Assembly: GCA_905178155.1 (NCBI GenBank)
Contig: CAJINV010000001.1
Span: forward strand, 14,942,142-15,006,141
Reading direction: 5' to 3'
Source: Amoebophrya sp. A120
Lineage: Eukaryota > Protista > Dinoflagellata
Length of the DNA stretch: 64,000 bases
Shown: positions 27,170-52,597 of the stretch, in pieces
Numbering within the stretch: the stretch's first letter is position 1
Layout: each line of letters opens with the position of its first letter
The notes under the pieces: generated by a model
Told to the model about the DNA's origin: nothing
The model's database searches: none
The model's input: the letters and a program-made list of their open reading frames with translations, nothing else
Program-made: the position numbers and the translations under genes

Positions 27170-29121
27170 TTATTCTTCCTCTTCCTCCTCTTCGGCGTCA
27201 CCCATCTCGGCCATGAGCTTGGTGCGAGCGGTGGCCTATTACAGTGAAAAGTGCCCCCCACCCCTGAAATTGTAGCAAGGATTTGTGATGCAAAGTTTCC
27301 AAATGAAAACTTTTTGTCATGCATGAAAGGAGTATGAACCTTTCTGAGGCAAGGTCTAGGCGTGTGTCGCAGCGCTTGCATGACAAGCGCCGCTTTTGCT
27401 GGGATCTTTTGCAATACAAATTTTTGCTATTCACGATCGGAAATCTGTGATGCTGATAGATGCAGTAGGGCGAATGTTTCATTTGGAAAGGTTTGCAATA
27501 CAAATGCTCCGAACTTCGGGGGTGGGGGCATTTTTCCTCGCGATATGGCCAGCTTCTGCTTGACGCGGTCCTTGCGCTGGGCGTTGGACCGCTTGATGCA
27601 GCGGGTGTAGCTAGTTCCCTTGGAGGTTTCGATGGTGTTTCCCTTGCGCGTGTTGGTGATACCCGCGCTCTCCTTCTTCACGAACTTCGGGTCCTCGCGA
27701 ATCTTGGTGTGGCACTCCTTGTACAAGTCCTCCAGGCCGTCCGCCTCAATGTCGTTCTCAATGAACGCGGAAAAAGCGACCTTGTAACCTGTTTTTAGTG
27801 TTTGGAAAGGGCGTGTTTTCGCTGGTGAGTCGGAAAATCCGTGTGTATACACTATCTTTATGTTCTTGCACTCTCTCATCTCCAATAGCAAAAGTTCTCA
27901 TTCTCTTCCAAACAACTCATGCAAAAAAAAACCGAGACACATCTGTTGACGTGAAATGTCGAAAAGAAGTATTAAATCGAGAAGAGTTAATCGCAAAATC
28001 AAGTACGTTCCGGATCCTCCTCGGACAGCATCTCCATGTACTCGGAGACGTGGTTGCCCAAGATGCGCTCCAAGTGCGCCGGGGCATCGTACTCGTAGTC
28101 CTGACCCTTCTCTTCCGGCTCCTTGTAGCCCGGGAACTTGGAAACGGAGTGGGGCACGTGCAGGCCACCGTCGACGGCGCCCTTCAGCATACCGAACACG
28201 CGGGAACCTGGAATTGGTTTTTTGAGGAACATAAATTCTTGTCCTACCGTCAGCACGCAGGAAACAGGAACAATTCCTAAACGAAACTACCGACAAGTCT
28301 AGCGATATTCTTTTCCTAAACCGCGGATTCGGATTGGTGCAAGAAATACAAATATGCACCACGCCGTCACCTACGCTGTAAAGAAAAAAAAAATATGTAC
28401 CCGGAATGGTGCGGATGAGGCCGACATCCAGGATGCACTTGAACGGGCGGCGCTCGTTGTCTTCCTCTTCGACGTGGAATTCCTCGGCGGTGCACTCTTC
28501 AACACCCTCAATGGAGTCTGCCAGTCCGACGATATCCAGGGCACGGCGAGCGATCAACAGACCTGATATGGTTTTAGTGTTTTTTTACCAGACTATCATG
28601 TGTTCCGCATTGGTATCTGCGGCCGCGACGATAGCACAGAAAGAACCTTCAGTGCACCCCATAAGTAACCATGAAACTAATTCACAAGAGCCACACTGCT
28701 CTGGCCAGTATCCGAACTCACTCTCTTCCATGCAACAGAGCCACTACCTAAACTGCTTCCGATTCTAAATTTCCTAGATTAGGTAAAAACACAAAAATGT
28801 CAAGCGAAGTTGTATACCGGTAGCGTAGCCGGCGGCGTAGTTAGTGTGGCCGCACGGGACGCCGTACTTGCCGAGTTCGGAAGACATAGCCTGGCACAAA
28901 ACCTTGTCACCCTGAATGGTGGCGTAGACAATCTGGCAGATCATCTTCTTGTTGGTGATGCGGCACACCAAGCGGTACTTCGGGGTGTTGTACTTGTTTT
29001 TGTCCTGAGCGACCATCTTGCGACGGGCATGGTAGTCGGTCTTACCCTCGCGGCGGCGGCGGTACTTGGTCTGCAAGCGCTTGTAGTAAGCCTTGTTCTT
29101 CTGCACCTTCACGAACGGCAT
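27170..29121 (-). CDS. RPL5: 60S ribosomal protein L5 (uL18), 5 exons
   Basis: [47 protein letters not shown] introns 28563-28817, 28208-28400 and 27789-28006; a fourth intron 27236-27549 (GC-AG compatible, TIR element) restores the tail [23 protein letters not shown]. Confidence 0.97.
27237..27545. mobile_element. Introner/MITE, TIR family C, in RPL5
   Basis: 309 bp with TAT...ATA ends, an imperfect ~70-bp inverted repeat (GAAAA.TGCCCCCACCCC...TTTCCAAATGAAA) and a perfect 5-bp duplication tggcc at 27232-27236 and 27546-27550. Confidence 0.9.
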
Positions 29122-29287
29122 CTTGTTTTGTGAGTGTTGTTTCTACCAAATGTTGACCCAAAAGTTCTCGTACAAAAGAACTCCACTAACAAATGTCCCT
29201 GTGTAAGCGAGTAGGAAGACGATACGTTCGGCGGTGACAGATACATTTTGACAAAAGGTGCAATTTTTTAGGTTTGTGTATTATCAG

Positions 29288-29550
29288 GCGATCGGAAACG
29301 TTTCAGAAAAGTTGCGCGAGATCGTAGCAATTTAGGATCCATTTAATAGAAGCGGAGCGTCGTCTTGCACCCGACGCAAGAGTGAACATTTAGATCTTAG
29401 CGGATTTGGAATTTGGATCGCTTTGCGTCGCATCGCTCAGTGAGCTGCCTGTCGCGATTTGGATTTGATCAAATCTAATTCTTCTCGTGCATAGGACGGA
29501 TCTTCGCTTCACCTACTCTCGTGATCTTGTGGTGCTGGCGGAACGATCAA
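29288..29550. promoter_or_regulatory. GATC-rich cluster upstream of RPL5 (candidate cis-regulatory region)
   Basis: 9 GATC sites counted by hand in about 260 bp, versus about 1 expected; GGATTT variants also present. Confidence 0.45.
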
Positions 29551-32076
29551 CAGTTTCAATTTTATTCGCTCACAATCATCCATTTTCACGAACTCACGAT
29601 GACACGGAGGAAGGTTATCCTGATTGACACCATAAGGTATCAATTCGTATTGACTTTGACGGTCACCGAATTAGAACATTTGGCTTGTCGCCGGTGCGGA
29701 CAAAGAGATCGGTTCACGAGAGAGTTCCTCCAATTTCATTCTGATGACCTTATCCTTTTGTTCACAATCCCAACCGACGACGGGACGCGAACCTTCACGA
29801 CTAGCAGATACATCCTTTTCCACCGACGAAAAATGTGCCGGACGAACAAATTGGATCCTGTGCGCCCCTGCCTCAAGGGATGCGCTGAATCGCGCAGCGA
29901 TGAAGCCGCTGAAAGGGCGGCATTTTTCACGTCAAATCATATATTTGCCCAAAGCACTGGGATAAAGTCTTGCTCAAAGATACGAAACCGGGATATCAAA
30001 CGACACCACAGGGCTTATGAGTCCTGTTCAAAAACGAAAAAAGACCTAAATCATAGAAAAATATTAGTAAAAGCCCATTTACAACAACAAAAATAGACCC
30101 TTCTTGAGAGCATCTAGTAAATCAAATATTCCTCCTGGTTCAGAACTACTTCAGTTGTGTTTTACCAGTTTTCGCGCACCGGCTATACTTAAGCGAAGTC
30201 TGTGGTTAGCTAGCGTTTTTACTTTGTGTCATTTGATTTGCCTTTCTAAGTACGACTGACTAATCACATCTTTCTACCGTCCTTCGTCCATCATGGAACT
30301 CGTTTTGTGGAGAATCGCTCTACTGCACCGTCGCGGCTCTGCACATATCGAAGCTCAGCTGGTTAGGTTTAGAATTTTGTGCTAAATTCTCCTGTGTTAG
30401 CGTGCGATTTTCCTTAATTTTTGCTGTGTGCGATGCATTTGACGATCTTAGTCTAGTAGAAGAAGTGGTCGTAGTGTACGCAAAAACAAGCCGCATTTTC
30501 AAGATTGTTCGATTTACAGTTTACAAAGAAAGCTGCAAAATAGACATTGCGCTCTCACATACTCGTGTACGTTCTATCTGGTTACAACTGCATTCTGCTT
30601 TTCGAGATTATGGACTTGGGTCGAGAGATTATGGACTTGTATTACAGTCAGGAGCAAAAGATCGAAAGAACTTCACACAACAAGTCTAAATTGCAATCAC
30701 CCCGCCCTTCTATTTTTTCGTCCACGACCAAGAGTAGTTTTAGGGCTGCTATTCATCATAACTTCGCACCCAAAGCTTTTTCCCAGTACTCTATATTTCC
30801 CGCACAGCAAAAGACTAGTGTTGACATTCTAGTATTCATATTTTAAACTTTAGGACTTGTCTGCCTACAACTATAGCCAGCCAAGCCCGAAGCGACAAGC
30901 CACCCACAGCACTCCTCTCGGCTCTGCTTCGGTTGTATTTGTAGTTGTCGTTCCGTCTAAATACTCCACCGGCTGTTCCCGGACACGCCGCTGCGTGACG
31001 TGCTACAAATTAATCATTGCACTCACAGCGCAACGGGCGTGTCTGAACTGAGTAAACAAAAGGCAAATTGACATGAGCTGCACACGGGGGGGACATGCCA
31101 ACTCGCCAGTTCACTTGGAAGTAATATTGGTTCTAGGATAGTATCAAAAGTTCGAATGCAGCCAGGCAGTATGGCAAAGTCCAGCAGAGGGGTGGTGCGT
31201 CTTTCGCTTTAAAAGTGCTCAGTCATGTTCTTCTGGAGTAGAGGGGTCCAAATGAATCTAGCTCGCGAAACAGCGATCTAAATTAATACTTAAAGAGATG
31301 CAAGAGTAGCAGTTTCTGTGATAGAATTTGAAATTTCTATCGAGCATTTTTTCGGATACAAGTCAAATGATGTACGTACCTCTCGCTCGTGTTGAGTTTG
31401 ATTCTCCATTCTAGAGCATTAGTAGGAGTGGAAGAAGCAAACAGGATTTACATTTCAGTCTTTGTACGTTCTGGATACAAAATGTGTGATCCATTTTCAA
31501 CATGTAGGTAGGAATCATTTGAAAAGCATTTGAGTATCTCCATCAAACGCAACAAAACCTCGCTGCACACGGGGCCGAGGTGGCAGAGCGCTGTCTGATG
31601 GTACTTGCCGGGGGTAAGAAAGGTAAGACTTTCGGGGTGGGTATAGATGAGACGAAGCCCCACATTTGCACAAAACTAGGTCCTTTTTATTTGCGGGTAG
31701 AGGAAGTTGCATTATTGCTCCACATTGCTGTCTTTGCCATAAGTTACGAGCATAACTTTTGGAAAGGGCAGCATGAGCTCTTCTACCAGCCGGGGGGGAA
31801 GTATTCAAAAAAAAAACACCTGCCGAATCTGGTACTTGTCATTTACGTATTTGCCATTCCGAGCACGGAAGTAGTGCTTGTAGCCATGTTCAAATTTCTA
31901 AATTAGAGCCGCCTTATTCCAATGAGTCAAAATCTTTCAAACATGCTGTTGCTGCAGTGGTCAACGCCATCGCGGATGTACTGACGCTGATTCTGCGGAA
32001 ACATTCACCTAGCAGAAGTACTGGAATTGTCAACATTTCATCATGCAGCAAATTATCGAAAAGCTTAAGCGATCTT

Positions 32077-35000
32077 TTAGCCCGCCTCGGTTCCCTCGGA
32101 GCCGTTGGATACGGTGCTGGCCTTTTTGTTGTTATCGGCGAAGCCGAACTCTCCCTCACGCAGCGCAAACAGAATGTGCCGTCCATATGGTAACCGCTCG
32201 AGCGTTTCAATGTACTGTCGCATCAGCTCCACAATCTCGTCGCGGACCTGGCCCTCCGCGACCTGCATCAACTTCTGGACCACATAGTTTCCATACTTAT
32301 CCTTCATCATCGTCACCGCTGGTGGCACCGCGTTGGCGCGCATCAACGGCGTCGTCGGATCTTCATCGCCGTCTTCCTTCAGCTGTTCAGGGTTATGTTG
32401 AGTTTATTGTCACTCTGTGTTCACTGCTCCAGTTAGCCAGGATTAAAGTGATCATACTATACAGGGAGTTGCTAGTTGAGCCTTCACAGTTATAAAAACT
32501 GCAACGACGAGCCGCGTACAGGATGTTTGAATGCGAAAAACTGTCATACACAAAAAAACAAGAAGATTCTGTCAGTTCTTCCTCGCAAATAAACCAATAC
32601 CGGCTTTCCGATCGAGACTGTGACGAAATTCTGTCGGTCCTTTCGATTGGCCTGTTGGATACTCTTCTCCACCACGTTGGATGCGAACTTGTGGCAACTC
32701 ATGGCCGCCATGTTCTTGTTCACGATCGCGAACACGCGGTCCCGGTCCTCCTGCCTTCCGTACTCCACCATATTCTGGATCACATAATTGCCATACGCGT
32801 CGTGGATGAATACGCTCAGATTGTTGGCGTGAATCTCGTCGTAGATTTTTGCCACCTGCTCCGGGTCGCAATACTCGATGATCCGCTGCAATACGCGCGA
32901 GCCGTAGCAGTGCGTCGCCATCCGCGGGACGTGGCCCCGGAACGCGTCAATGATGAATTGCACCTGTGGTTGTACATGTAATCGAGTATTGATGTGAGGG
33001 ATCATCAGAGTCATCCCTTTCTAACGCCACGATGTTTCATCTCAACTTATCGGCTGGATACAACTCGTATTAATTGGGGTGCTGAAAAAAAGGAATGAAG
33101 GGAATTCATGAACAAACCTTCCCGGTGGGCATCCGCTCGAAGAATTTTTGCAGAACGTGATTTCCGTTCTGGTCCTCGACGGCATCCAGCACCTGGCCGG
33201 ACATATCCTTGGCGAGCTCCAGCTGCAAATCCACGTTTAACACCTCCAGAATGCGCTGCAGAGTGCGGCACCCCGTCTCGTGGACAGCGATATCGAAGAC
33301 CTGTGTTTTAATCGGAGAACAGACTAATGGAAATAGAACTACCCGGATCGGTTTTTGCACAATAAACTTTCTTGAAAAGGGTGGAAGTCGAAGTGTAAAT
33401 GGTAGCGGTAACACAACCAACAAATACTTTTCCGTTGACATTCGCTCTCGCATGACCAAAAAGCGGCGAAATCACGGATAATACCTTTGTCTTCATGGCG
33501 TTAATCAACATGGTTTTCTGTTCCAGGGGGGACATACCGCAGCTGGCGGAACTCTCGAACAAACTCCGCACGATGTTATGCGCGAATACGTCGTTGCACA
33601 AGGAGACCTGTTGTTATGCGTTTGACAACCTTGAGTCGCAAGTCATTCCGATCAAAAGCAGCTTGTTTGCATCATCAGCAAATTCAACGACTACAGCTTG
33701 CTTGAAAGAGAGGTGAAGGTGCGCCACGCAAAAAGTTGCAACATAGGAAAAATTTTACGATGTTGTTCGCGAAAATCTCGAGCGCCGCACGACGCAACTC
33801 CACAGAGGTGTCATCGTTTTCCATGGCACGCACCACGGCCTCGTGCGCGTCCGGGCACTTGGAGAATTCCATCAGCTCTTCGCCGCTGCCCTTCTGGACA
33901 ATGTGCGAGAAATCGAAGGTCCCCTTGTCCCGCCACTCTTCCAGTTCCTGCAGAGGAGTTCACAGACAAGCTCACATTCATTCTATCTTAATTACTTGCC
34001 TTTCCAAGGGCAGAAAAAAGTCTCTTTATTCAATTTTGTACACCTCATTTTTCCGACGAAAGAAAGACGAAAAACTGTCTTCGGGTCTACTTGCGAAAGG
34101 AACGGCTTTTGTACCTTGGAAGCGGGCTGACCTCGGCGGCGAGACGCTTCGGCCTCTTCCAACTTCTGCAGGTGCTTGCCCGGTTCTGGCTTGGAATTGT
34201 TGTTGCCCGGTCTGGAAGGACCGCCAATCATGGTACTCTTGCCTTTCTTGGCCGCATTACCTGTGAAAATAGAAGTTTCGCCCAATTTTCTTCATGACGC
34301 AACGGAAACGAACTGCCTCACGAGGAGGCGCTGCGTACATCTGTGGTGAACAACGCTGGTTGCTGGCGCTGATGCTTTATCAGCTCCTGTGCAACTTATC
34401 CGCGGCGTATATGCAAATGAAAAATCGCGCACGTAAAAATCATGGCTATCTGCGGGATTTTCCTACCTCAACCTCAAACTCTAACTTATCGATCATGCAG
34501 TCTATGCGAAGTAAAAAACTTCTCGTATCTATACTGTTCTTCCCCTTGCCTTTGCCCTTTCCCTTCCCGTCGCTGGACGTGGAGTTGTACTTGCGATCAC
34601 CGGACGATCCGTCGGTGTACCCGCTCTGCGGCGACATGCGGGGATTTTTGCCCTTCCCCTTACCTTTTCCAGCGCCCTTGCTGTTGCCGCCCGAGCTGTT
34701 GCCCTTGCTGATCCGCTTGCTGGGGTGGTAATTGTCGTTGTAGTTATTCCCATTGTCCTTCGAAAACTGGCTGTACTCGGTGAACCCTCGACCGTTCTGC
34801 GGACCCCCGCGCGGACCACCACCGTCGCCACCGTCCATGAAATTGTTGCTGTTGTAACTGGTCATGCCGCCCGAGGTGGTGTTGGTGGTGGACAAACTGC
34901 CCCGCTGCTGCAGCTGCGACTCGTAGTACGCGAGATCCAGCTGGCGGTTGTTGTAGTTGTCCATCTGATCGCGGTAGTTCGCCGGCGAGGCGTTGAAGTT

Positions 35001-35738
35001 GCCCGGATACCCGCGCGGCGTGGACCCGTTCTGGCTCGGGTTCCCGAACTCGTAGCCGGAATCCAACCGCATCGCGTTGTTGTACCCGCGCTGGTTGTTG
35101 CGCTGGTGGGCCAGCAGCTGCAATGCCTGCTCCGCGGCCGCCGCGGTCTCGCGGTTCATCTGGTTTTCGTAGGCCGGGTTGCGAAAGCCCTGGTTCACCG
35201 TGGTGCTCATCATGTTATTGCGATTTCCACCCGGTCCGCCACCCCCACCACCCATCAGGTTGTTCGGGTTCGGCCCGTTGTTGTTACCGCCGTTCGCGAC
35301 CGCCCACTGCGCGCGCAACGTCATCTCGTCGACCAGCCGCTGCTGGTCGCTGTAGTTGCTGCGGTCGCGGACCAGCTGCTGCCGCATCAGGTTGTTGGCG
35401 TTGTTCCCCAAGTCGAGATTATTACTGTTGTTCCCGTAATTCGGGGGCATCCCGTTACCGTAGTCCTGCTTGGTCATCATGTAGTCAGACAGACTGTACT
35501 GCTGGTCCTGGAAGTTATTGTGCACCATGTTATTGTTGATGTCACGGGGACCTCCATTGTTGTTGCCGTTTCCCGGTGGACCACCGTTGTTGCCGTTTCC
35601 GTTCCGCATGATGCCGTTCCGCTCACCCGAGCGCTGGTGCGGGACCCGCATGATGCGACCCTCCGGCGCAAACGTGGTACGGATGGAGCGCTGCTCCACG
35701 ACCGGACCGCCGTTGTTGTAGCCGCGCTGTTGCTGCAT
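32077..35738 (-). CDS. Pumilio/PUF RNA-binding protein with N/G/Q-rich low-complexity N-terminus, 7 exons
   Basis: PUF repeats HETGCRTLQR, DQNGNHVLQK, HCYGSRVLQR, DAYGNYVIQ, HKFASNVVEK, DKYGNYVVQK, LPYGRHIL. GT-AG introns 34261-34534, 33948-34131, 33608-33758, 33301-33484, 32964-33117 and 32383-32600. Confidence 0.93.
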
Positions 35739-38516
35739 AATGTCGCTGTGCGAAAGTCAGATGATTTTCTCCGAAATTAGAGAAGAAAATTCCCTGCTCA
35801 CACCACAGGTCGCGTGTCCGCAAAGCTTGCTCCTTCAACGACGCTTGGCTCTGCGGCTTTCGGAGGTGTTCTTCAATTGGATTTTTCCCTATCGTCTAGT
35901 GTACGTAGTAAAGTTGAAGTATATTTGCTTCGATAAAGAACAGGGATAATGGTGTTTCTCAAAAAGTTAAAATCGTTGTAGAATTACAAATTGAATCCGC
36001 GAGGCTCGTTGTATCTGCACAAGCGAACCAGCCTCGTGAATTCGAAAATTTGTGAATGTTGAAGTGAATACAAAAAGTTCCGTTTTTTACTCGATATGCT
36101 TGATGTACACACGTCCCGGGTTATCAAGAGTGGCAAAAAAGGAATCACTAAAGTAAAATCTTCTATCTAGATGTACAATTTTTTGAAGAATTTCTGGGAA
36201 GAGGAATTTTTCCAATGTTTTAGTATTTTCGCGGACGTATATTACAGTCAGTAGTATTCTTACCCTTTTTGGTTTCCAAATTTCAAACAAGATGAGTGTG
36301 GACAGTTTCAGTTACAACAGTATCGAAGTAAAATAAACGAGAACTGCGCCCAAGGAGGTTTCCCGGTGCTGGGAAAAATCGGACCTTGTTGCAGGACTCG
36401 CTCAAATGGCAGCTAGTGGCAACTCGAATGAAGTTGATGAGCTCTACTAAAAATAATCTCTTCGGTATGCTTCTTATTGATCACCACGAGACCCTTCGCC
36501 TCGGAATTTTTGTGGATTGTCAAAGTAGTCGGTCTATACTAAAATTATGCAGGCTGCGTAACTCTACAACCCGAATTGTTTCACTACAGAACTACTATTC
36601 TACAAAAGTCGCCGAGCCCGCAAAGAAAGATGCTGGTAGTCGCGTATCCTTTCGCAAGCAAACTCGAACCGACTGGCCTTGGAATTTGCGTTTCGTTGGT
36701 TTCTACACCGGCGCTTTCCTTCGGTGGTCTTCCGATTTTTGTGTATCAATAATGTGCTTAATACCCGTGACAGATTAAGAGAGGCAGAGCGGTGTCCTAC
36801 GGTTTTGGAAGTTGGAAAAAAGATTCGGTTTCCGGATAGAAGATTATTTTTTCACACTAACTTTACTAAACCTTATTAGAGAATCGATGGACTCTCTCGA
36901 AGCGGAATTTCTTTTCACAACAACGCTGTTGAGTGTTGATATGTGCTGTGTTCAAACAAATGCGCAGAAAAAAAGATGCTGTGTCGCCGCTCGTCTCTTC
37001 GCTTTGCTGTGACGCAATAGTACAACGAGCTTGGATGTGTACAGACTACTTCTCGCTTTGCCTTAGTAATTGCTGCGCTGTTGAGATCCTCGCGTTCTAG
37101 TGCGGTCTTGGTGGAAAAAACCGTCGAGAGCTAGAGCCGCGCCGCTTCGTCTTTGATGTTCTACGCAGAACGACTAGGAGAAGATTCTTGAACCTTTTTT
37201 GTTTACGCGGGTTGGTTGCTGGATACACAGCACCAGAGAACGACCTATACTTCGTCGCGAATCACACTAAAAGCTGTGTCTGTGGGTAGAAAAGGTATGG
37301 GGGGGATGCATATGCAATTAAGTGAACTTACTAGATCTTGCACGCAACACTTCGATACAAGATCCGGCTTCAAGCTTCAAAGAACTGCTACCAGAGCGTT
37401 CCAAAAGTTTCACTATCAGATAGGTTCTGCACAAACTATCTTTCTTGTGTGTGTGGGATAATGAAAACCGAAACAGGGATGTAGTCCGGCTGAGAAACAA
37501 ATTAGGAGGATCGGAATTATGTCAACTACTAGTTTCAAGCTGGGTCTTTATCTTGAAACAAAAGCGGATCGCGATTGAAGCAGTAAACTTTTATTGGTAC
37601 ACAAACTAAGCTGTTTTTTGATAGCTCGCTAGACACGTTTGCGTGAAGGAACAGTCAGGAAAGCTGGCACACGGAATACTTCCTTCCGGCTCTATGGATA
37701 GAAAAATCTCTTTGCAACGTAGTTCTACACTTACCTTAATAGTCCGGCTCTCGGGCTCGGGACCTGTTTTGCTCTACAAATAATATAATATGCAAATGTG
37801 GGAAAGGGGGTCTCACACGGGGCTTGAGTCCTGTATTCGGCATCGCAGAAGAAAACGGAAATTATCGAGGAATGTTTTTGTTATTTTGATGCAAAAAAAA
37901 TGATAAAGAAAAAATGCCGAAGCAATTTGCTTTAGCGACGATTGTTCGCATGCAGTTTTGTTGCGACAATTACGAAACTCCGACTCGCACAACTTCTGCT
38001 TGTTTGGCAATATCACGTCGGTAGCGAAAACTCTCTCATTCTGCTTGCCCGAAGTTTTTCGAAAAGGACCGAGTTCGAATTCAGCAAAAAGCAAATCAGA
38101 CCGATCAGATGTTGCCAACGAGAAAAACCGAGTCATATATAAATTCATCTGGGCCACGGTTCCGGTTGGCTACTCCTTTGACGAGTTTTTCAACACAGAA
38201 CTAGCTCGTGCGTCTTTCGATTTTGGCCGACAGGAAAGCCACGGTCGGTCCAAACAGGAACACGGTAAGAAAGCGCAACTGCAAATCAGTCGCCTAGCTC
38301 ATTCGTCCTGTTTTATCTCAGCTTTGCACCATCTTGGCTGCAAAACAACAAAACTTACACAAAGCAAGGAGTACATTCTTCCAGGTCAACATAAACGCAG
38401 CCCTAGCTTCACACGGCTGATACAAAACTCCCAGTTGTTCGTACAAGTAAGTCTTGCGGCGGGCGGAAAATTCATAGTCGACGCAGCAGTGAGTGGGAAC
38501 GGCGACATTGTTTCAT

Positions 38517-40148: not shown

Positions 40149-41280
40149 CGTGGTTGTTCGCCAGCGAACAGTGATATTGTTCCAATTGTTGTGCTGATGA
40201 AACTACACAACTAGGCTGGTGGGGAGAAGAAAGTAGTGAAAAACAAGGTATTTTATTCAGGTTATATTTTGTGTCGTAAGTGTGCAATCGAACCGGAAAA
40301 GATCGCACTCCCGTCGAAGAGCTGCTTCTCCTGCTCCTCTCGCAATTGAAACTAGGAAAAAAAGGGTATCGATAGGTAGTACACAGGGGGGGACGTACTT
40401 ACACTGGATGGTAGGTGATAAGGAAAGTTGATTGAATCCAGAAAAAACCGCCCGTAATCTTGACAGAGACAGAAGCCAACTCAAAATACTCTAAAGTTCT
40501 AGGCTCTCGTCGTGAGCTAGTACCGACTTGGAAATTTCGAAAGGTGGACGAGTAGGTTTTTTTGTTGGTGTACGATGCAGTTTCTTGCTCAAGAAAATGC
40601 TACCGACTTTTCTGTTGTGCAGCAGATTTTTCGTACTTACGTAGACACACTTGAATCAAAACATGAGATCATGCTAGACCGAAAGAAGTACAGACTGATA
40701 AAGGCTTTTGTGAACGACTTTTGTTGACCAGAGTTGAGTACTCAAATCGATTTACGAACGGCCTCGATTGCTCTACTGTGCCTTCAGCCTGAGCGCAGCT
40801 TGGAGCAAAGCGTCGAATAAATGCTTCCATTGATTTTTCCGGTCGCGGAACTTTGTTTTGTGCATTTTGTTGTCGTGTTTCTTTCACAAATTTTCCGGGT
40901 TTTTTTGTTGGGGATGGGGGAGCTATCTGTACGATGGAAAGGGAGGCCGCAAGTTTTGCGCAAGTTCTTTGAGGCTGTCACTATCCCAACCGGAATCCGT
41001 AAAGAAACATGACACCAAATGAGCCACTCGCTGCTTGTTTCGCGGCCTTACCTACATATCAGATTGGTGCATCCACGACGGCTCTACGAAAAATGCAGCG
41101 ATTGTTCTTACGACTCTAAATTGTTGATACAGTGTGGTCTAGTTCGTTTTGTTGAAATTGGTCTATCACAACTTGTTTCAAATTTCCTCGTTTATAGCAG
41201 CTCCAACGTCGCTAGATGTAGTATGTAAAATCTTTAGATTTGGTCACGCGTGTGACAGCTCTGGTAATTAGTGAAACAAC

Positions 41281-42355
41281 TTATCCTCGGCGCAGACCGA
41301 GCAAAAAAGTGCCCGCAAAGGCTCCCGTAGCGGTATTCTTAGCGGCGGCACCTATGGTAGTAAAAGCAGACGCTAGTGTCTTTGTACTGAGAATTTCCGG
41401 CAAGAACACTTGGAATTCAAGTATAGGTATGGGCTGCTCAATCATGCTGCAGTCGCTGTGTCTACATACATACGCAAAAAAAAGATTAATCAATACCTTC
41501 GAGCTCGTCATTTGCAAGAACATCTAACACCTTCTGAAGCCAGACGCCAGCATCCTTCTCGTCGAGCTTTCCGTCGCCGTTTGTGTCCAGGGCCTTCATC
41601 ACGTCATTTTCTACCTGAAAGAATTTTGTGCGTAGTTGCAACATGCGTGGACCCAAGAATCCTCGGAGGTAACGCTAATCATACATGAACACGCGAAGGA
41701 AGCGCCACAAAATGGCTCACGCATTGTCTACCTTTTTCCAGTTAATTGTGACGTAGCCGTAGCTCGCGGCGACCTGGAATAGACAGTAAAGGGAGCCCAC
41801 ACCGACCGCAACCGCTTTTCCGATTTTTTTGCACGCGTAGCCTGCCGCGAGTCCTGATGCGCCACCGAAGGTGAGACCTGTGATTCTATGTTTCGTGTAC
41901 AAGAAACGGAAAAAGATACTGGAGTGCTCTTTCGCTTGTAGACTGCTGTACACGATCAAGCAAAATAATGGCGATAGTGAAACTTCATCTGTACTAGCGC
42001 AGCACAATTTCTTCTACCTCCCGTCAGTGGCTTCATGGTGTCTGGCGTAATCCAATCTGGTTTTCCGATCATGTCCTGAATTTTCGCAAGATCGAAGCTG
42101 GACTTGTCCTCGCAAAATACTGTCTGTCTTCTTCTGATGTAGCTCGACTGCGACGCTGTGTACCTGCGATTTGGAAGTCGTTTGCTAACGAAATTCAACA
42201 TAGCAAGGATGGGGAGCAAAGGACAATGCAAAGGCATACTCAATGCGCGAGCGTGACGTTGACAAAATCCTTACTATCGATACTTACCCAGCGAAACCGC
42301 ATCCGGCCGCCAATCCCACCCGGCTTGGCGTGGCAAATCTCGTAAGGAAGGACAT
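41281..42355 (-). CDS. FUN14-family mitochondrial outer membrane protein with EF-hand-like loop, 5 exons
   Basis: GGASGLAAGYACKKIGKAVAVGVG...GYVTINWKKVE, DTNGDGKLDEKD, GAFAGTFLLG. Introns 42164-42287, 41878-42017, 41615-41731 and 41352-41496 (the last acceptor is less certain). Confidence 0.88.
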
Positions 42356-43090
42356 TCTTGTAGGGTCACTTAGAAAAGGGAGGACGAAACAAAGTCTCGA
42401 CGAAAGGCTTTAGAAGACGGCGCAGATTCACACCGGAATGGAAAGGAAGCAAGGTAGACCTCGTTCAAAACGAGGGGTAATCAAACAACTAGAAGTTTTT
42501 TTTGAGTAGAAGAAAATTCCTCGAATGAAGATCGGCGTGGAGATCTTCTTCTCCGCCCTCGTGGGCCCTCATCAGTTTGCACCTACTCACAGGTTCCAGT
42601 TTCCCGTCCGCTCCTATGGCTATGCCCTCACAGCTCGAACACTATACCATAAAATGAGCTACCCCAGATGCAGCGGCACTATAGGTGGCTTCTGTAGTAC
42701 CTCTTAGGTTTTTTCGTACGTACATTCACTGTGCTTGTTCTGGATAAAAAAGGTTTGGAAAAAAATGGCTCTTGTACTTTTAGATGAGTGTGAAACGACG
42801 CATTCTTCGAATGCGATTTTTTTTTTTTTGGCATTGGCTTCGGGTTCGGCCCCTAGTTGTCCGACTACTGCTGCACTATGCCGCCGCAGGCGGATACGAG
42901 ACGTCGTGCGAACCTCCCCCAAACAAATTCCTCCCGCCGCCGATTCCTGGGGTTGCTAGGCTTCCGTAGTTCATAGGTTGCGTCTCCGTGTTGCCTTCCG
43001 AAATAGCTGCGACGGCTGCAAGCGAAGGAGGTTTTTTGTATTTTTTTTTCAACTACCTTTGATTTTGAAGCTCACAATAAATACGCCGGC

Positions 43091-43908
43091 TCAGAGATTA
43101 CTTGGCGTCAGAGTACAACACATGGCTGCATCTTCGTATGCATCATGTAAAGCAATGTTTCTATTCCTACCATCTCCGAGCAGATTCTTCCCGGGCTTCC
43201 CCGCGGCGAGCAGTTCCGGAAAGCCGGTCCCCGCACCTCCCTGCCGAATGTCCTCACACTGGCTCCAGATCACGTGAATGCAGTAGAGCTGGAAAATGAA
43301 CAGTGTGAAGGAAAAAAGAATCACGAAGCTCCGCGTCACCCCGCACGCGAAGGCTGCACCCTGCTGCTTCACCGATTCCGGCATCATGCTGCAGGCGTCG
43401 TTGATGAAGAGATAGTAGATGACGTACCCAAAATCCATCAGAAACGAGAGGGTCACATAGTACAGGTAGAGTCGCAGGTGCGGCTCCTGGCGGTAATACA
43501 CACCATACAGTGCGGCGCAAATGAAGGGAAGCCCGAAAAGGCAGTACCTGGAAAGAAAAATGGAATGGTGATGATCTTGCCGTATGCCAAACAATTTGGA
43601 GAAATCATTAATCATAGCATGAAGCGACACGAGCTGGATATATATCCTCTTTATGCTTTTGGTTCTGTGCAAACATGATGATACGCTGCGTTGAAGACTT
43701 GATGCCCGATGTCGTCGCCGAACCCGACAGTGGGGATTTTTAGAATGATTGAAGAGACCGCAGCGGCAATGTAAAAGACGTTCATCAGCAAGTTTCCAAA
43801 CAGAATCAGCTTGGCTCCGGTGGAAAGCTGGCAGCCGCAGCAGAACTGCGTCATGGGCCGACATGAGCAGCACCAGGCCAGCAGCCCGCCCTTCCGTGCG
43901 GGCGGCAT
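43091..43908 (-). CDS. Four-TM membrane protein with Cys-rich N-terminus, 2 exons
   Basis: FCCGCQLSTG followed by four hydrophobic segments; GT-AG intron 43548-43684 joins VFNAA|YCLFG in frame. Confidence 0.8.
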
Positions 43909-44566
43909 GATGGTGCTCGCTGCTTCTGAAAGGTCAAGCTTTTAGCGCAGCGAAAATTGTGACGAGTGTGTGTGTGGCTGAAGAACAAGAAACTGTAGGC
44001 AAATTGTACTCCGTTTTAGATCTCTTGTGGAGGAGCGAGGTGCCACGGTGTTGCTTCATGCGTAAAGAAGCAAGCGTTTGTTACGGTGTGATCTCAGAGT
44101 ACACTCTTCTCGTCTTCGGATGAGTTTCTCAATATCACTCACTTACCCGTATATCTGGCCCGGTATTTGAACACAACAGAACACGGCACCATTTAGACCC
44201 GGTAAAGCCGCGGTCAAAGAAACGAGCTGCAAGCTGTGAGTGAGAGTACGTCTGCGTCTGCGTGCAGCTAGTGTGACAAAAGAGACAAGGTTCAAATGCG
44301 GCAGAAATTCCAGAGAATCTCAATCTTTATGTTCCAAAGTGCGACTCGATCGCGCGGACTTGTCATTTCTTCAAGACAGGGGTAAAGACATGTACCTACC
44401 TGCACCCGAAGACAATGACGTAAGGAAAGGGAAAGATTATGCTGCGAGTGGGAATGGGGTGAATAAATTCAGTGGGCCTTACTACAAAAACTTGCGAAGC
44501 GTTTATTACATTCGATCCTCACAGACATGTGGTGGATCTTTTCCTGATATGAAAAGCCTCCCCGCT

Positions 44567-46672
44567 TTACGACGTCGTTTTCGCGACTCCGAAGGTACTT
44601 GACTCCAACACGTTCGGCGCGAACGCCTGCCCCGACGCCACTGTGCGGCGCAGTAGTCTTGATAGCGTGTTCAGCTTACTCATTTCGCCGAGCCTCCGCT
44701 CCCGCGCCCAGTTGTTGCTAGTCCGGGCCACTTGCGCAGCCTTTTCAATTTCCGCCTCGTAAAAGGCCATCATGTTTTCCTCCTTCTTGACGTCTTCCAT
44801 TTTGTGCGTGAAAATCCTCTGTGGGCCGAACTTCCAGGGCTGCAGAAACGTTTTTCGGACCTTGTAGCGGTCCCCGAGGATATCTTTGGCTTCGGCCAGT
44901 TGGGTTTTGGACAGCAGCTGCAGGTGCTTCGACGGCTGGTATCCGTGTCCGTGTGGGTCGTCCATGGCCAGGAAGGGCTTTACCGCCCCGCGCATGAACT
45001 TCGCGGTTTTGTTTAGGTCCTTCACCTCCGGAATCTTCTGGTTCTGCAGCCGGTACGTTGTACTGCTATCCTTCGAAAGGAGGACGGCGGTCTGACTCTG
45101 CGGCACCTGTTGAGAGGGGAAGGAGAGAAATAGTAGATGTAGAAGATGGGGCCAAGCTTACAATACACACGAAAAGGCGCGGCGCGCGACCCTGCTACAA
45201 GGTGGCGCAAAGGATGAGGGCGGCGGGCGGCAGCGGACGCGGACGCTCGCTGCCTCCCCCGCGGCGTTTTGGAAATAAAAACGCAGCGGAGGAGGAATCG
45301 AACCCCTGGGCGTCACCGCCCCCCGCGGGTTGAAGCCGCGTCCGAGCACCAGCCCGGCTCACCACTGCCCTGAGCGGATATACAACCTAAGGAAAAGCCT
45401 TCACCCGGGTAGCCAGAATAGCTACTGCTAAAAACGGCATTCGGGCAAAAAAAGCGCACCATATCTTTTTTTGAGGGTATTTATTCGTAAAAAAGAAAAA
45501 AAAACCTACAAGTAGATGTACCTTCTCCCCGCCAATGACGCCTACCGTCTCGTTCGTTTCAAAATGGCCATAGGGGTTCATGGCCACTTGCCTTTCCGGG
45601 TGCGTCCGCTCCGCTAGGTTTATTGGCCCGCCGATCTTATCCTTCGTATCAAGTGTAAAAATGTCTGGGTCTGGAAGGTGTGATGCGCATTTCAGAACAC
45701 AGAAAAATCTCTCATGCATAGGCAGCAAAAGTTGCCCATTTTCTGTCACCAAAGTCAGGGATTTGTCATGCAGATTCGGCATTGCGAACGCTTCTCGAAA
45801 CCTGTGATGCTAGAGCTTCCATGCCAGACCTTCTGTGTCATGCAAAAGCAGCATGATTCTTCCAGACCCAGACATTTTTACATTTGATACTTCGCCGTCT
45901 GCTTCCATTTCCGCCCTGAGGTGCGGTTCGCTTCCTGCTGCGAGACAAAGCTGTCGGTGGGAAAGCCGTGGACGTCGAACGGGAGATCCAGCCCCGGGGT
46001 CGCGCTGGAGGAAGCGGAAGATCCCAGCACCAGGCTCGACGCGCTGCCGCCAGAGGGGGACGGCGTCTGGCGCTTCGTGGGGGTCTCAATTTGCGAGGAT
46101 GCGGTAGGGGAAACGATCGGGGAGGGCGCAGTAGTCGCGGTTTTAGCGGACGTAGGGGAGGGGGCGGCACCTGAGAAAATGTTGGAAAGTAAAAATTAAG
46201 AGCGACTTTTCAACTCATGGGATCATGATCAGCAAAACTCACAAACTATTTTTTCGGAAAAAAGTAAGTACATTCATCCTTGCTGGGTATAGGATGGCAG
46301 TACAAGACAGAAGTGATCAAGAAGTTGGAGTTTTACTACACGCTAATCAATACCTTTTGCTTGGTCCTTGCTGTCGTCCTCGTCCTCGGCTTTGGGCTCG
46401 ACTTTCTTCCCCTTTTTTTCCCAAATATCGTCCGCCCGGGTTAGCACTGCAAACCTCTCGGCCCGCTGTTGCAGGAAGGCTTCCACGTCCCGCTGTCCGC
46501 GTTTCTTAAACTGGTTGGTCTGCTCTTTTAGCCATCGGTCGCTACGCTGGCCGTACATGGAACGGTACTTGCCGCACCGGAATTCCCAGTTCTTGAACTG
46601 CTTTCCAGCCAACATTTGGCCTTCGCGCAGCTGGACCTCCGGCCCGGACTCGACATGTTGTCCGCGACCCAT
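44567..46672 (-). CDS. Hypothetical protein, at least 4 exons; host of tRNA-Sec and an introner
   Basis: ATG at 46672 (MGRGQHV). GT-AG intron 46171-46353, 248-nt non-canonical intron around 45643-45890 and GT-AG intron 45107-45521 give one continuous frame to the stop at 44567. Confidence 0.8.
45277..45281 (-). terminator. Pol III oligo-T terminator of tRNA-Sec
   Basis: TTTTT immediately after the discriminator base on the minus strand. Confidence 0.7.
45282..45368 (-). tRNA. tRNA-Sec: tRNA-Sec (selenocysteine, anticodon UCA)
   Basis: 87-nt 9/4 cloverleaf: acceptor GCAGTGGTG/CTCCGCTGC, 6-bp D stem CCGGGC-TGGT-GCTCGG, anticodon arm CGCGG-CT TCA AC-CCGCG, long variable arm GGGCG-GTGA-CGCCC, 4-bp T stem GGGG-TTCGATT-CCTC, discriminator G. 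Confidence 0.96.
45647..45889. mobile_element. Introner/MITE, TIR family A
   Basis: 243 bp; 31-bp TIR TATCAA(A/G)TGTAAAAATGTCTGGGTCTGGAAG with 1 mismatch; 5-bp duplication cttcg at 45642-45646 and 45890-45894. Removal restores QTAK|DKIGG. Confidence 0.93.
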
Positions 46673-47339
46673 TTTTGTGAGGGTGTGATACAGGAGATGA
46701 GCTGTGTCCGGTAACACTTATGGGGGAGTCAAGACAAAGTGTTGAAAGAGTAAGTGAAAGAAAAATAGTAACGTCAAGAAAAAGAAACAGTCAATGGAAA
46801 GAGTCAAAAATGAGCTGGGGGTCTTGATGAAGATCCTGTGGGGGTGTCTTGAAAGCAACTTACTTGATTACGAATGTTGCGCGCAACGACAGCTTCTGGA
46901 CGGACCGAGGTTAGTACTCCTTCAGATTTGGTGTTTTCTGTACGAGCTATTAGCACTAGAGCACAACGAAAGCAGAATCGAAGAACGATCCACGAACCAG
47001 TGAAAACAGGGACGATGAGGAGAACGAATTGAACGAAAACCAGGGACGACAAGAAGCATGAACGGGTAAGAATGAACAGAACCGACAATTCTCATCGAAT
47101 GCGGTACGAGAGATGAACAAGAGCACCAGAGTCTACCATCTTTTTTTCTTTCCGTGGTTGACGAGTTGTGAAATCAATGTCTTCATTCTCTAGTTGGTGG
47201 TTGCCTCATTCTGCACAAGTTCCAAGTCGGTAGTTTACACAAACATTTTTTACGTATGACAATCGGTTTCATCTGATACACTCTGTAACAACAACTTGAG
47301 CAAAAAAATATTTCTTTAGTCTTTACGTATATCAACTGC

Positions 47340-50300
47340 TTACCCTGCGGTGGTATCATCGTGAAAGTTCTGTGCGAAGAATCCGCCAGACCGGAGCAGC
47401 TCCTGTGGCGTTCCGAACTCCGCCGCGCGCCCGTTTTGCATGACCAAGACTTTGTCACATCGTGTCAAAGTCGCCAGTCGGTGCGCAATGAGAAACACCG
47501 TGTGATTCCTCAAAGTCGTCCTCAGCAATGATGTGATGCGCTGGTCCGTGGCCGCGTCCAGGTTTGAGGACGGCTCGTCCAGTAACACGATCTGTGCCTC
47601 GTCTTTTCGCAAGACCATCCGCGCGAACGCGATCAGTTGTGCCTCTCCCGCCGATAAGTTTGCGCCGCCGGCCTCGATTCTTGTGTCAAGCGTGATCGTG
47701 TGGGAATCTTTTTTGGCACCAGCTTTCGTCGGAGACTGCGAAGTGGAAGTAAATACAGGAGGATTTAGATTCATTTCATCTGTTCTATTTCCAGTAGCTG
47801 TAGTCTGTAGTCCATCATCATCTTCCAAATCGACGTCGACAAACACCAAAGAGAAGGCGGTCTCAATCTCCTCGGGCAGAAACTCGTCGAAGGGATCGAG
47901 GTTTTCCCGCACCGTACCGTCCATGAGGAAAGGTTTTTGCGGCACCATGAAAAGATTCCGCCTCAAGTGGTACAGCGGGAGGTGCTTTGTGTCATACTCG
48001 CCGATCTTTATCGTCCCCGTTTCGACGTTGGCAAAGCGAAACAGCATGGCACACAAACTTGACTTCCCGGCACCGGTTGGCCCGCAAACCCCAATGTGTT
48101 CCCCCTGCGTGATCTTGAGATTAAAATCTGAAATCGCGAGCGGAAAGTTCTCCGAGTAGCGCAACGAGCAGTTCTGGAAACGGATTTTCGCAGATTTCAT
48201 CTTCTTGCCTTGCTTGATGTGTGCAGCCGCAGTGCCATCGGTGTCTTCCGCAACATGATCCAACCGTGGCAACAGCGAGGGAACATTGAGCACGTTTTTT
48301 GCAGTCTGGCTAATAGTGCTCTCCTTACTCGGTGAGCGTTGTTCGAAAGAATCTGCCGTGATTGCGACGGGTGGCCCACCGGATTGTTCGGTGTAGGAAA
48401 ATTGGTAAGATCGGCGTCTTGTCAGCTTCGAATCTGTGAGACTCGATGTTGATGTCGTACTGCTGCTTCTTGCAACTACGTTATTTCCCTTTTGAAGATG
48501 ATTCTTCGCCGCGTAGGTGAGCATGAATTTCTCGTGCTGTCTCCGAAACTCGGCCAGGGGCTCTTCTTGCGGCGTCTCTTGAAGGCGGAAAACGCGCTCG
48601 CACTGCATCAATCCCAGGGAGAGAATGAAGTAGAACTGCGCGATCAAATTGAACATGAAGGGCATGATGAAGCAGTAGCCCACAATCAACCCGATGATCG
48701 GGCGCGGGATCGATTCCCTGGCGTTGTAAAGGAACAAAACCAGCGAGGCGGCGACGATGGCAGACAGGAAGTAGCAGCACAGATTCGAGAAGATGGTGAT
48801 TTCCTGAGCGGCGTACCAGCACCGCAGGTACGTGTTCATTCGGTCGCAGTGCTTGTCCAGAAAGTATTTTTCCAGTTTCATAATCCGCGAGAGCGACGCC
48901 CCGTCGATGGCCTCACTCACGTTGGCGACCACGGGGGACAACGCGAGGGAGGCCAGCCGCTTCGTGTCCCGAATTCCGTACAACACGAGCTGGCAGAGCT
49001 TCAAGTACACCAGCGCGACGATGACAATCACGATCGAGGTAAACGGGACGACAAAAATTTGCAGTCCGAGGATCGTCACGCCCAGTCCGCAAAACTGCAT
49101 CCACACTTCGGTGATGGTGGAAAATTGCACATCTACTCCGCTCAAGTCGGTGGATAGCGGGCCGTACACCTTCCCACTACTCGCTTCGTCAAAAAAGAGG
49201 AGTGGTGCGCCGAAAACGCGGATCACAGAGAGATCGTGCAAAGCTCGCCCCGCTCGGGCAGCACCGTGGTAGTACAGCAGGCCGAAGCAGCTGGACAGAA
49301 TCGCGAACGCCAACGCACAGCCGAAGTACAGGACAAACCACGTGCTCTCAAATGTCTCCAAGTTTCGGTCGTTCCCCTTGCGGAGCCACTCCGCGAGAGC
49401 CAGTTCGCTTGAGGCCAGCACGCCGTAGGTGGTGAGCCAGGAAAAAACCATCAGCAACAAGTTGGTCGTGCCGAAAAGGAGAAAGTACTCGCGAATGTAT
49501 TTGCGCCCGGTGCCCGTATTTTTCTGTTCTTCTTTCAGGAATTTTCGCGAATACTCGTCTTTTTCAAGAACAGAAGATTGCTCTTGGCCCACCTCCTGTG
49601 TCCTTGTTTTGCTTCCCCTGGTTGTACTGTTAAGCGATGTTGCGCCGTCCAGTGACACTACGGTGCCGACGGTTTCGTCGCTCTCCTTGGACACACGACT
49701 GGTATCTCTGATCAAGCTCGGATCGAGCAAGTCTGGCAGAGAATTCTTGTTTTTCGTTCTGGCGAGTCCAAGCGTTTTAGTCACATCTGGTGCCGCGCCG
49801 TCTTCAAGTTGTTGTATGTTAGTACCGGGCACGACGTCTACTTCTTCTTGCAATTCTATGTCCGTCGGGCCCGTTGCTGTCGATGATTCGGGCAGCGCAG
49901 TTTTTAAAACTCCTTTGTCTAGTTGCAAGACAAAGTCGGTCTGGGACAGCAGCGCGGCTTGGTTGAAAGCGAGAAACACCAGCTTTCCGTCCTTGGCGTA
50001 ATGGCGCAAATTGTCAAAAATTGCAACTCCAGTCGTGTGGTCGACCGCCGCTAACGGGTCGTCTGCGACCAGAATGTCCGGGTCGCCGGCCCACGCGCGC
50101 GCCAAATTCAGCCGAGCCTGTTGCCCGCCCGAAAGCGTTACGCCGCCCTGGCCGATCTCCGTGTAGAGCGTCAGCTCCTGCTGCGGTTGGGCGGATTCGT
50201 TCTTGGTTTCGCGAGAATGAGCACTGTCATCCTTCGTGATTGGCGATACACTTGGATGCGCGGCAATCGATGTAGAAGTTCTCGTATCTTCCGTGCCCTG

Positions 50301-52597
50301 ATCTGCGAAAGAAGTCAACAGCCTTGCACGGATCAACGCCTCTTGGATTTGCGCCAATGACAAGTGTTTTCGGCCCATCCGCACATTCTCTTCGATCGTT
50401 CCGGTGACGACAAAAGCCCGCTGCGGACAGTAACCGACGTTACACGTCGAAAACTTAATTTTTCCGCTGGTTGGGCACTGCTCGCCGAGCCAGGTCAACA
50501 GCAAAACCGTCTTTCCCGAACCCACAGCGCCGACTACGCCGATCAGTTTGGATTGCGGCGGCAGGGTGACGGAAGCATCAGTCAGCGCAACAACCATCGT
50601 CGTCTCCACTCCTGATGTGCTGACCAGTGTTTCGTCTTTTTTCGCAACCGCCGATGAGGTTATCGTTTCTTTCTTTGCATCAGATGAATTTTTGTTTTGC
50701 GCGGCTAAATCCCCGGACTTTGTTGTGCTTTGCCGCTGCAACTTCACTTCCACATCGGTCATCGCGCAGGCCTCCGTCGTAGCTGTTCCTTCGTCCATTA
50801 ATTTTCTGTATTCCTCCCGCTCTGGCAGGTTCAAATACTTCTCCAAACGCTGCAACGTTTGCACAAAGACCACCATGTTCACGACATTTATGGGAATCAG
50901 GACCATGGCGCCCCGCATCCCCTGCAGCACCGCGAGCACCGGAAACACGAGCTCCACGGTCAAGGGCTCGGCTCCGTCGTGCCAGTAGAGATACGTTGTG
51001 AGGGCGAACACCGCCGCGAGGACGGGCAGACACCGGCCTAAGTTACTCCCGAGCACCTTGTACTGCTGCCACAGTTCGATGGCGCGCGTTTCTTTGTTCC
51101 GAAACTCCTGCAATTTGTGGAAATACCTACCCTTATCAAATGCAAAAATGTCTGGGTCTGGAAGAGTCGGGACTTGTCATGCACATTTTGCATGACCCGT
51201 GAGGTCTGTGATGCTGGTGCTAGCATCACAGATTTTTTGAGAGCTTCTTGATGCTGATTACGCATGAGAGATGCCCTCTCCGCGTGCCAAGAACTGACTC
51301 CTCTTGCTGCTCATGCAACACAGATATTTCTAGAATCCGCAGACAGCATTACAAGTTCCACTCTTCCAGACCCAGACATTTTTGCAATCCATAACCCTCC
51401 CAGCACGCGTATTTCACGCCCCGGATGTTCGCCAGCGCCTCCTATGGAAGCGTCAGGATTGAAATCGACAAAGTTGAAATAATTCCTCATGCAAAAATTG
51501 CAAGGCATGAAGTGCCTCTCTTGCAGGCATGGCAAGCGAGGCCGACTGCCAGCCTGTTTGGGGTCTGCGATAGAGCTGCTAAAGTAGCATGACAAAAGAC
51601 GCCTTCTGTCCCTAAACAGCATAACAAACAGGATTTAGACGGTGCCGAAATTTGTCATGCACCGCTGAGAAATGGGGCTTTTAACTGGTATCGATTTTAT
51701 GCATTACAAGTTATTTCAACTTTGACGATTTCAATCCTGACGCTTCCATACCTCCCGTAGGCACTGCAGTCTCCCGCCGGCGTGCACCACGGCCTGCGCC
51801 TCGTATTTTCGCGAGGTGATCAAACGATGGAAGGACACCCCGATGCCGCAAAGCACGAACAGGACGGTCCACACGCCGACGATGTCAAGGAGAACCATCA
51901 GGTAGGCTGACCCGACGGTCAGGGAGACGAAACTGCTCGGGATCCAGCCGAAGACAAAGCCGACGAGATTTGCCTTGCCCAAAATTTCCACAGAAATCAG
52001 CATCTGCGCATCCGCGGCTTTCGGCGCGGGCGTTGCGGCGGGTGGATCAGGTTTATTTTTGCCTTCGTTTTTGGTACCTGATGTTGCAGTTGTAGCAGCG
52101 GGAGCACTGCCAGTATGATGATCCTGCACGCGCTGCATCTTCCACACGATCAACGCAGAAAGCATGCCCTGGAGTTTCGTCCAGAATTTCGCGACCAGCA
52201 CATCGTTTCCGTGCAGCCAGCAGCATCCCTCAAAAAGGATGGGGCCGACAATCGCGAGTAGTATCAGTTCCAGTCTCGGACTCTCCGCATTCATCTCTTT
52301 CAACACAAATCGCACGGCCTCTGGTCGGGCGATCACCATCACCAATCCCTGCATCGTGCCCCAGAATAGGCCGCGAATCACCAGCCCGCGGGTCATGCGC
52401 CAAACCGTCTTCGGTAAGTTTCCCCCGCATTCCTTCAGAACCGGTAGCGTTTCCCGAAGAAGCTTTTCACTGTCTACATCCAGAAGATGGTTCACATCGG
52501 GGAAGTCGAGACTGCCCTCCTTGTAGTTCTTCCAGATCACCGGCGCGACGTCGGTCTTGAAGAGCACATCGAAAATGCGCGAACAAAAAGGAGCCAT
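47340..52597 (-). CDS. ABC transporter, ABCC/MRP-like (TMD-NBD-TMD-NBD), 3 exons
   Basis: NBD1 GAVGSGKT / LSGGQ / ILVADDPL; NBD2 GPTGAGKS / LSAGE / IVLLDEP / IAHRL. Removing two TIR introns gives CLREALANIRGVKYACWEGRYFHKLQEFRNKE, matching the ABCC TMD1 IR.IK.YAWE region. Confidence 0.93.
51134..51393. mobile_element. Introner/MITE, TIR family A, in the ABC transporter
   Basis: 260 bp; TIR TATCAAATGCAAAAATGTCTGGGTCTGGAAGAGT versus TATGGATTGCAAAAATGTCTGGGTCTGGAAGAGT; 5-bp duplication accct at 51129-51133 and 51394-51398. Confidence 0.93.
51443..51750. mobile_element. Introner/MITE, TIR family B, in the ABC transporter
   Basis: 308 bp; 40-bp TIR TATGGAAGCGTCAGGATTGAAATCG(A/T)CAAAGTTGAAATAA; 5-bp duplication cctcc at 51438-51442 and 51751-51755; compatible with a GT-AG intron 51439-51751. 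Confidence 0.93.

Follow-up and report, generated by a model that had tools for sequence, protein, structure and literature searches.

The stretch of the Amoebophrya sp. A120 genome studied here (64,000 nucleotides of contig CAJINV010000001.1, positions 14,942,142 to 15,006,141; hereafter the window) contains four intact introner elements, short insertions with terminal inverted repeats (TIRs), and one eroded copy. The gene for 60S ribosomal protein L5 (- strand) carries a 309-bp element of TIR group 1 at 27237..27545; the pieces of this gene find their best solved-structure match in 5xxb, which we take to be an apicomplexan ribosome. A 243-bp element of group 0 lies at 45647..45889, and an ABC transporter gene (- strand) holds two more, a 260-bp element of group 0 (51134..51393) and a 308-bp element of group 4 with a 55-bp TIR (51443..51750). 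TAT...ATA termini are common to all four, as is a perfect 5-bp duplication, and the four thus form a single structural class. The initial annotation had described three TIR families with different ends around a shared interior octamer; the octamer stands, but the ends are not wholly different. These four, all within coding sequence, are the only intact elements in the window; the loci fetched for the larger sample described below, each selected on an element, have about one per 2 kb.

The octamer, TGTNATGC, matches the window 21 times over both strands, against 7.53 +/- 2.90 in shuffled sequence, and none of 100 shuffles reached 21. Sixteen of the 21 matches fall inside the four elements, four in each. 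As the initial annotation had anticipated, the word is far commoner in elements (16 in 1,265 bp, or 12.65/kb) than in background, where long open reading frames (ORFs) hold 3 in 36,741 bp and introns plus intergenic DNA 2 in 25,994 bp (0.08/kb each); the two GT-AG introns identified from contig gaps contain no strict site. In the L5 element, strict sites stand at 27284+, 27315+, 27378- and 27446+, with variants at 27411- and 27495-. The element at 45647 has sites at 45679+ and 45710+ (33 and 64 bp from its left end), 45764+, 45803+ and 45836+, all strict except 45710+. A complete four-site lattice opens the 51134 element (51175+, the weak variant 51190-, 51207+ and 51223-) and is joined by 51262-, 51315- and 51346-; the strict sites among these are 51175+, 51207+, 51223- and 51346-. 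In its neighbour, the strict sites are 51587- and 51619-, 32 bp apart, 51653+ and 51701-. Two of the octamer positions given earlier were off by one (27316 for 27315, 45680 for 45679).

The same signal recurs in a larger sample. Scanning with a single TIR 20-mer gave at least 151 stretches, of which 145 loci were used (628 kb once merged), a selection biased toward group 0; apart from repeats and tRNA-Sec, these loci have nothing in common with the window and may therefore come from another strain. An element caller that is blind to the motif and requires TAT found 325 elements, and none in reversed sequence; removal of 20 duplicates left 305 unique elements, 301 of them from related contigs. 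Strict sites occur at 12.4/kb inside elements and 1.4/kb outside, or 0.32/kb outside once element-homologous DNA is masked (duplicated stretches included in all three rates), and only 10 of the 325 elements have none. Enrichment over each group's own shuffles is at least 20-fold in all 10 TIR groups having two or more members, with 1.2-4.0 strict sites per element as against 0.01-0.10 when shuffled. The interiors of different TIR groups seldom align, a few cross-group alignments excepted. The full site reads approximately AAAYYTGT[CGA][AT]TGC and occurs about five times per element, by a matrix trained on the same set. The octamer signal is thus a real and general feature of these introners. 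The eroded group-0 copy (25690..25834, ends approximate), which has on either side a reading-frame piece of a DxDxT-motif gene, retains a single GGTGATGC at 25762, the octamer variant already noticed in this HAD copy, and has no site at the matrix threshold; the flanking gene pieces have no Pfam match.

Within the elements the sites form a lattice. Same-direction pairs peak at 31-33 bp, three helical turns, with the peak at 31 in eight TIR groups, and 252 of 294 elements shorter than 340 bp contain such a 31-33-bp pair. Weighted by TIR group, spacings of 30-33 bp make up 46% of same-direction pairs within 70 bp, whereas random placement gives 6.6% and none of 2000 nulls was as high. Downstream of a site, inverted partners are found at 15-16 and 47-48 bp; on the upstream side the distances are 17, 34-35, 50 and 66-67 bp. 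Sites that read inward keep phase with the terminus (at 10.5 bp, R is 0.51 against 0.18 for the null, with 0/2000 as high), and a scan of periods peaks at 10.5. First sites cluster at 33-34, 41-45 and 54-56 bp from the element end and are in phase in 60 of 71 subfamily ends and in 18 of 25 distinct group-distance pairs (p=3e-4, with windows chosen after the data were seen), so that spacing from the ends is constrained, as in subterminal arrays. The smallest family, at 109 bp, consists of two TIRs and one 32-bp pair. The sites had been expected to be symmetric about the element centre; the arrangement is not simply so, the lattice being phased to its own members and to the termini and running through the interior. 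Tandem duplication as the origin of the pairs finds no support, since pair spacers are barely more alike than controls (identity 0.31 vs 0.24). In groups 0 and 2, but not in groups 3-6, almost every end has TGC or TGT at TIR positions 8-10; the group 0/2 end itself, 31 bp before the 33-34-bp site class, may hold a degenerate site.

Conservation of the motif is seen most clearly between lineages. Counted over the five largest subfamilies, variants present in at least two copies occupy 12 of 140 motif columns where 68.5 were expected, and lineage-shared variants per core position number 0-6 of 58, against 513 of 1753 elsewhere. The motif is strongly constrained in lineages that kept transposing. 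A test of copy-private changes (14 subfamilies, 194 copies), which is not clean because private variants include unsampled lineages, places T0, G1 and A4 at control level (73 vs 76.7). A weaker constraint on the motif after insertion is possible.

Three of the four window elements are precisely missing from the contigs of run X1, which is RNA by guess only. One contig record (record 2) joins 51751 to 51128 with 44 letters between, the exact remainder once the 51134 and 51443 elements and one duplication each are taken out; another (record 1) lacks the 45647 element together with GT-AG introns of 415 and 183 nt, and its lengths sum exactly. Two non-exonic bins have X1 depths of 0.42 and 0, where run X5 reaches about 149 and 46. 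The raw RNA runs X9 and X10 gave coverage at repeat ends only. The window elements are introns, three of them by their absence from these RNA-like contigs and the L5 element and eroded copy putatively so. Two of the three removed elements (45647 and 51134) offer no GT-AG, GC-AG or GA-AG register; 51443 has a GT-AG register available, and the L5 element, whose removal from RNA is putative, a GC-AG register. Likewise, 187 of 209 stranded elements in the larger sample offer none of the three. AG-capable insertions number 109 of 208, an excess over the 99.4 expected from flanking coding sequence that is not significant (p=0.19). In the fetched loci, removal keeps the frame open across the junction in 204 of 215 confidently stranded insertions, a count biased upward because the strand caller penalises stops.

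Transcript strand could be called confidently for 215 of the 305 elements, with agreement within loci for 166 of 181. Sites on the sense strand read forward 343 times and in reverse 330 times, and the balance by elements is 86 to 87; the initial annotation had expected a bias toward the sense strand if the word were an RNA signal. Large subfamilies are inserted in both orientations (12:11, 12:10, 9:10, 7:10). Nor does the number of sites rise where canonical splice ends are missing: among 209 elements, the mean is 4.2 in 10 GT-AG, 3.3 in 12 GC/GA-AG, 3.1 in 87 xx-AG, 2.8 in 41 GT-xx and 3.1 in 59 elements with neither end.

We propose that non-autonomous TIR transposons carry a helically phased lattice of repeated sites, with the octamer as their core, and that a single transposition protein common to the families probably binds this lattice as double-stranded DNA. 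The likeliest candidate is an integrase-like DDE transposase that acts in trans. The 10.5-bp phase, the symmetry of orientation and the lineage-level conservation together fit a protein array on duplex DNA needed for mobility. Of the initial suggestion of subterminal transposase-binding sites, DNA binding therefore gains support from phase, strand and conservation; since no transposase was found here, we infer the identity of the binder. The elements themselves have the properties of miniature inverted-repeat transposable elements and other non-autonomous TIR transposons, being mostly 109-330 bp long, non-coding, flanked by TIRs and a target-site duplication (TSD), and present in 305 unique copies. 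The integrase-like candidate is favoured by family 38 of A120, which in the excerpts of PMC12130899 is annotated '5-bp TSD, TA/TA Termini' with a 49-53 bp TIR and a reported integrase-like homology (Copia/Gypsy ORFs); it shares the 5-bp TSD and TA/TA termini with our elements, as compared by annotation only. Several protein subunits could load on one face of the helix, as the 31-33 bp repeat, with its inverted partners about 16 and 48 bp away, would allow, beginning three, four or five turns from the end, and loaded subunits could help to assemble a paired-end complex. With such an array in common, many families could share one machinery even though their TIRs differ. Splicing would depend less on the octamer than on other features, for example the TIR stem and the duplication. 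A host cofactor alongside the transposition protein is possible.

Phased subterminal arrays are known binding platforms, as far as the excerpts of PMC6188088 and PMC1636448 go. IS1535, of the IS607 family, has helically phased motifs 20-60 bp from its end (PMC6188088), and the Emigrant MITE is bound cooperatively at subterminal motifs by Lemi1 (PMC1636448). Like these and hAT ends, our elements have multiple short sites of the kind that transposases bind inside the ends. They differ in having one word across families with different TIRs, a three-turn repeat, alternating orientation and an array that continues through the interior; hAT subterminal repeats are described, in the part of PMC6188088 available, as variable in spacing, unlike this lattice.

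Several observations weigh against our proposal. The roughly 0.63 Mb of loci contained no transposase or autonomous element, and excerpts of PMC7789003 likewise report no transposase in A120. Copy-private changes are low at T2/T5 (26 vs 51.4) and at G6/C7 (20 vs 51.1), which may reflect selection after insertion. The sites occupy the element interior and not the subtermini alone, and 7 of the 25 distinct first-site distances are out of phase; moreover, the TIR groups may share ancestry, in which case the permutation tests assume too much independence. In 24 representatives, the interiors were more stably folded than shuffles (mean z -2.8), with motif bases paired at 76% vs 61%; part of this stability arises because the interiors hold inverted copies of one word. 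One of 20 tabulated subfamilies is inserted 11:1 relative to the transcript. This is subfamily 4, which includes the window element 45647-45889; the four larger subfamilies are unlike it, and the skew may be chance among 20.

The candidates for an autonomous element that we considered did not hold up. A 6.2-kb TAT...ATA pair (L066:5039-11235), seemingly autonomous, proved to be two short-element interiors flanking host sequence; more than 10 introners of several families break up that host sequence over about 4.5 kb. Eleven called elements longer than 340 bp look composite or carry non-coding filler, and six ORFs from two of them gave no relevant Pfam match. A 1,104-bp group-4 element (L016:505-1608) has its motif array in the first ~260 bp only, followed by GC-rich short repeats; two ORFs from it have no Pfam match, and a longer element may have given rise to it by deletion. 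Viral contigs held no match to the group-0 TIR and none to the three-site lattice pattern, and a single lattice match in a prokaryote genome (L146), with no element-like context seen, was treated as chance.

The initial annotation had also suggested that the octamer is an RNA signal flagging these introns for non-canonical excision; such a signal could be a hairpin module or a site for a protein. Hairpins can indeed form between inverted copies 15-16 nt apart, the interiors fold better than shuffles, and most transcripts would hold the octamer either way, since 259 of 294 elements carry both orientations. However, the lack of strand bias argues against this account, as do the 12 elements whose transcript carries only the forward reading and the 14 with only the reverse, and the commonest spacing joins copies in the same direction, between which pairing is impossible. 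Variable positions show no covariation between inverted partners (0.31 vs 0.31; 0.39 vs 0.40), leaving the hairpin reading unsupported, and the 10 GT-AG-capable elements have more sites than the rest (4.2 vs 2.8-3.3), not fewer. We therefore consider an RNA signal quite improbable. It is very improbable that the octamer is a neutral leftover of shared descent or of tandem duplication within the elements: the TAT ends and 5-bp duplication found in all families make common ancestry plausible, and a few cross-group interior alignments exist, but spacers are barely more alike than controls and motif columns are far more conserved between lineages than their neighbours, a contrast that has already largely refuted this explanation.

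In an unlikely alternative, a DNA-binding or chromatin protein of the host binds the lattice and so labels the element at the DNA level; a spliceosome without U1 would then remove it co-transcriptionally in any orientation, and the same protein may also license transposition. Phasing and strand symmetry are compatible with such a protein, as are the prevalence of elements that offer no canonical register and the non-detection of U1 in A25 or A120, to the extent covered by the excerpts of PMC7789003. The low G6/C7 changes also fit, falling to a similar 0.44 and 0.33 of control in the two transcript orientations, and residual constraint on the terminal GC leaves room for a second, host-side role. 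Yet this deficit is weak in low-divergence copies (12 vs 19.3, p=0.053), T0, G1 and A4 decay at the control rate in single copies, and missing canonical sites bring no rise in motif number. Furthermore, the octamer is not enriched in host DNA, and the eroded copy at 25690-25834 stands between two reading-frame pieces, its splicing putative, though it has no site above threshold. It is also rather unlikely that one DNA-binding protein, recognising a phased lattice in every introner, does both jobs, building the transposition complex and tagging the element on the chromosome, in either orientation, for a U1-less spliceosome; if true, such a dual-role protein would amount to a DNA-encoded intron-definition code.

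By end signature, duplication and length classes, the elements match published A120-type introners. Excerpts of PMC7789003 and PMC12130899 describe these as having an inverted repeat of TAT, seven variable bases and then a run of at least three A, with 3-5 nt direct repeats and non-canonical splice ends. The TAT and A-run ends, 5-bp direct repeats and non-canonical splice ends recur here: A stands at end positions 11-13 in 88-94% of ends of the 325 elements, with 51443-51750 lacking the A run, and 74 of 84 arm pairs, called with no assumption about the duplication, have one of 5 bp. Length classes of about 109, 150, 210, 252-262, 279, 308 and 321 bp parallel published A120 families of 106, 148, 208-214, 252-260, 278, 305 and 319 bp, in a comparison with 24 of the 58 A120 rows of supplementary file 8 of PMC12130899, where A120 families are mostly classed 'TIR DNA, Unknown'. 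IS3EU/GingerRoot elements have the same TA..TA termini; however, in the parts of PMC10045372 and PMC6839031 available, their duplications are usually 6 bp and GingerRoot TIRs span 100-150 bp. We do not file our elements as members, since a 6-bp duplication occurred in 0 of 84 arm pairs.

The elements are thus already known, and the internal word and lattice are a new feature of them relative to the excerpts at hand. The published accounts of A120-type introners cover ends and repeats and, in those excerpts, do not mention a shared internal motif. No description of the word or lattice was found in the literature covered, which leaves outside it the figures, supplementary files 13-14 and 34 A120 rows of PMC12130899, and Roy et al. 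2023; the excerpts of PMC9860276 and PMC12005148 contain none, and TGTCATGC was not found in literature texts among the matches listed. Amoebophrya introners number tens of thousands in about two thousand families, and their mobility and splicing mechanism is stated as open in the part of PMC7789003 available. That a single internal word is conserved in a fixed helical arrangement speaks for these families being one system served by one protein. The lattice offers a precise bait for finding the binder and a marker for eroded copies, and it draws a testable distinction between the signals for mobility and for splicing.

Two further features of the window deserve mention. The 415-nt GT-AG intron defined by the gap in X1 record 1 (45107-45521) contains a tRNA-Sec gene (45283-45366, - strand) co-oriented with its host gene. 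At 6529-6745, two near-identical units of about 75 bp, from repeat families D1 and D11, are separated by about 140 bp and are unrelated to the introners.

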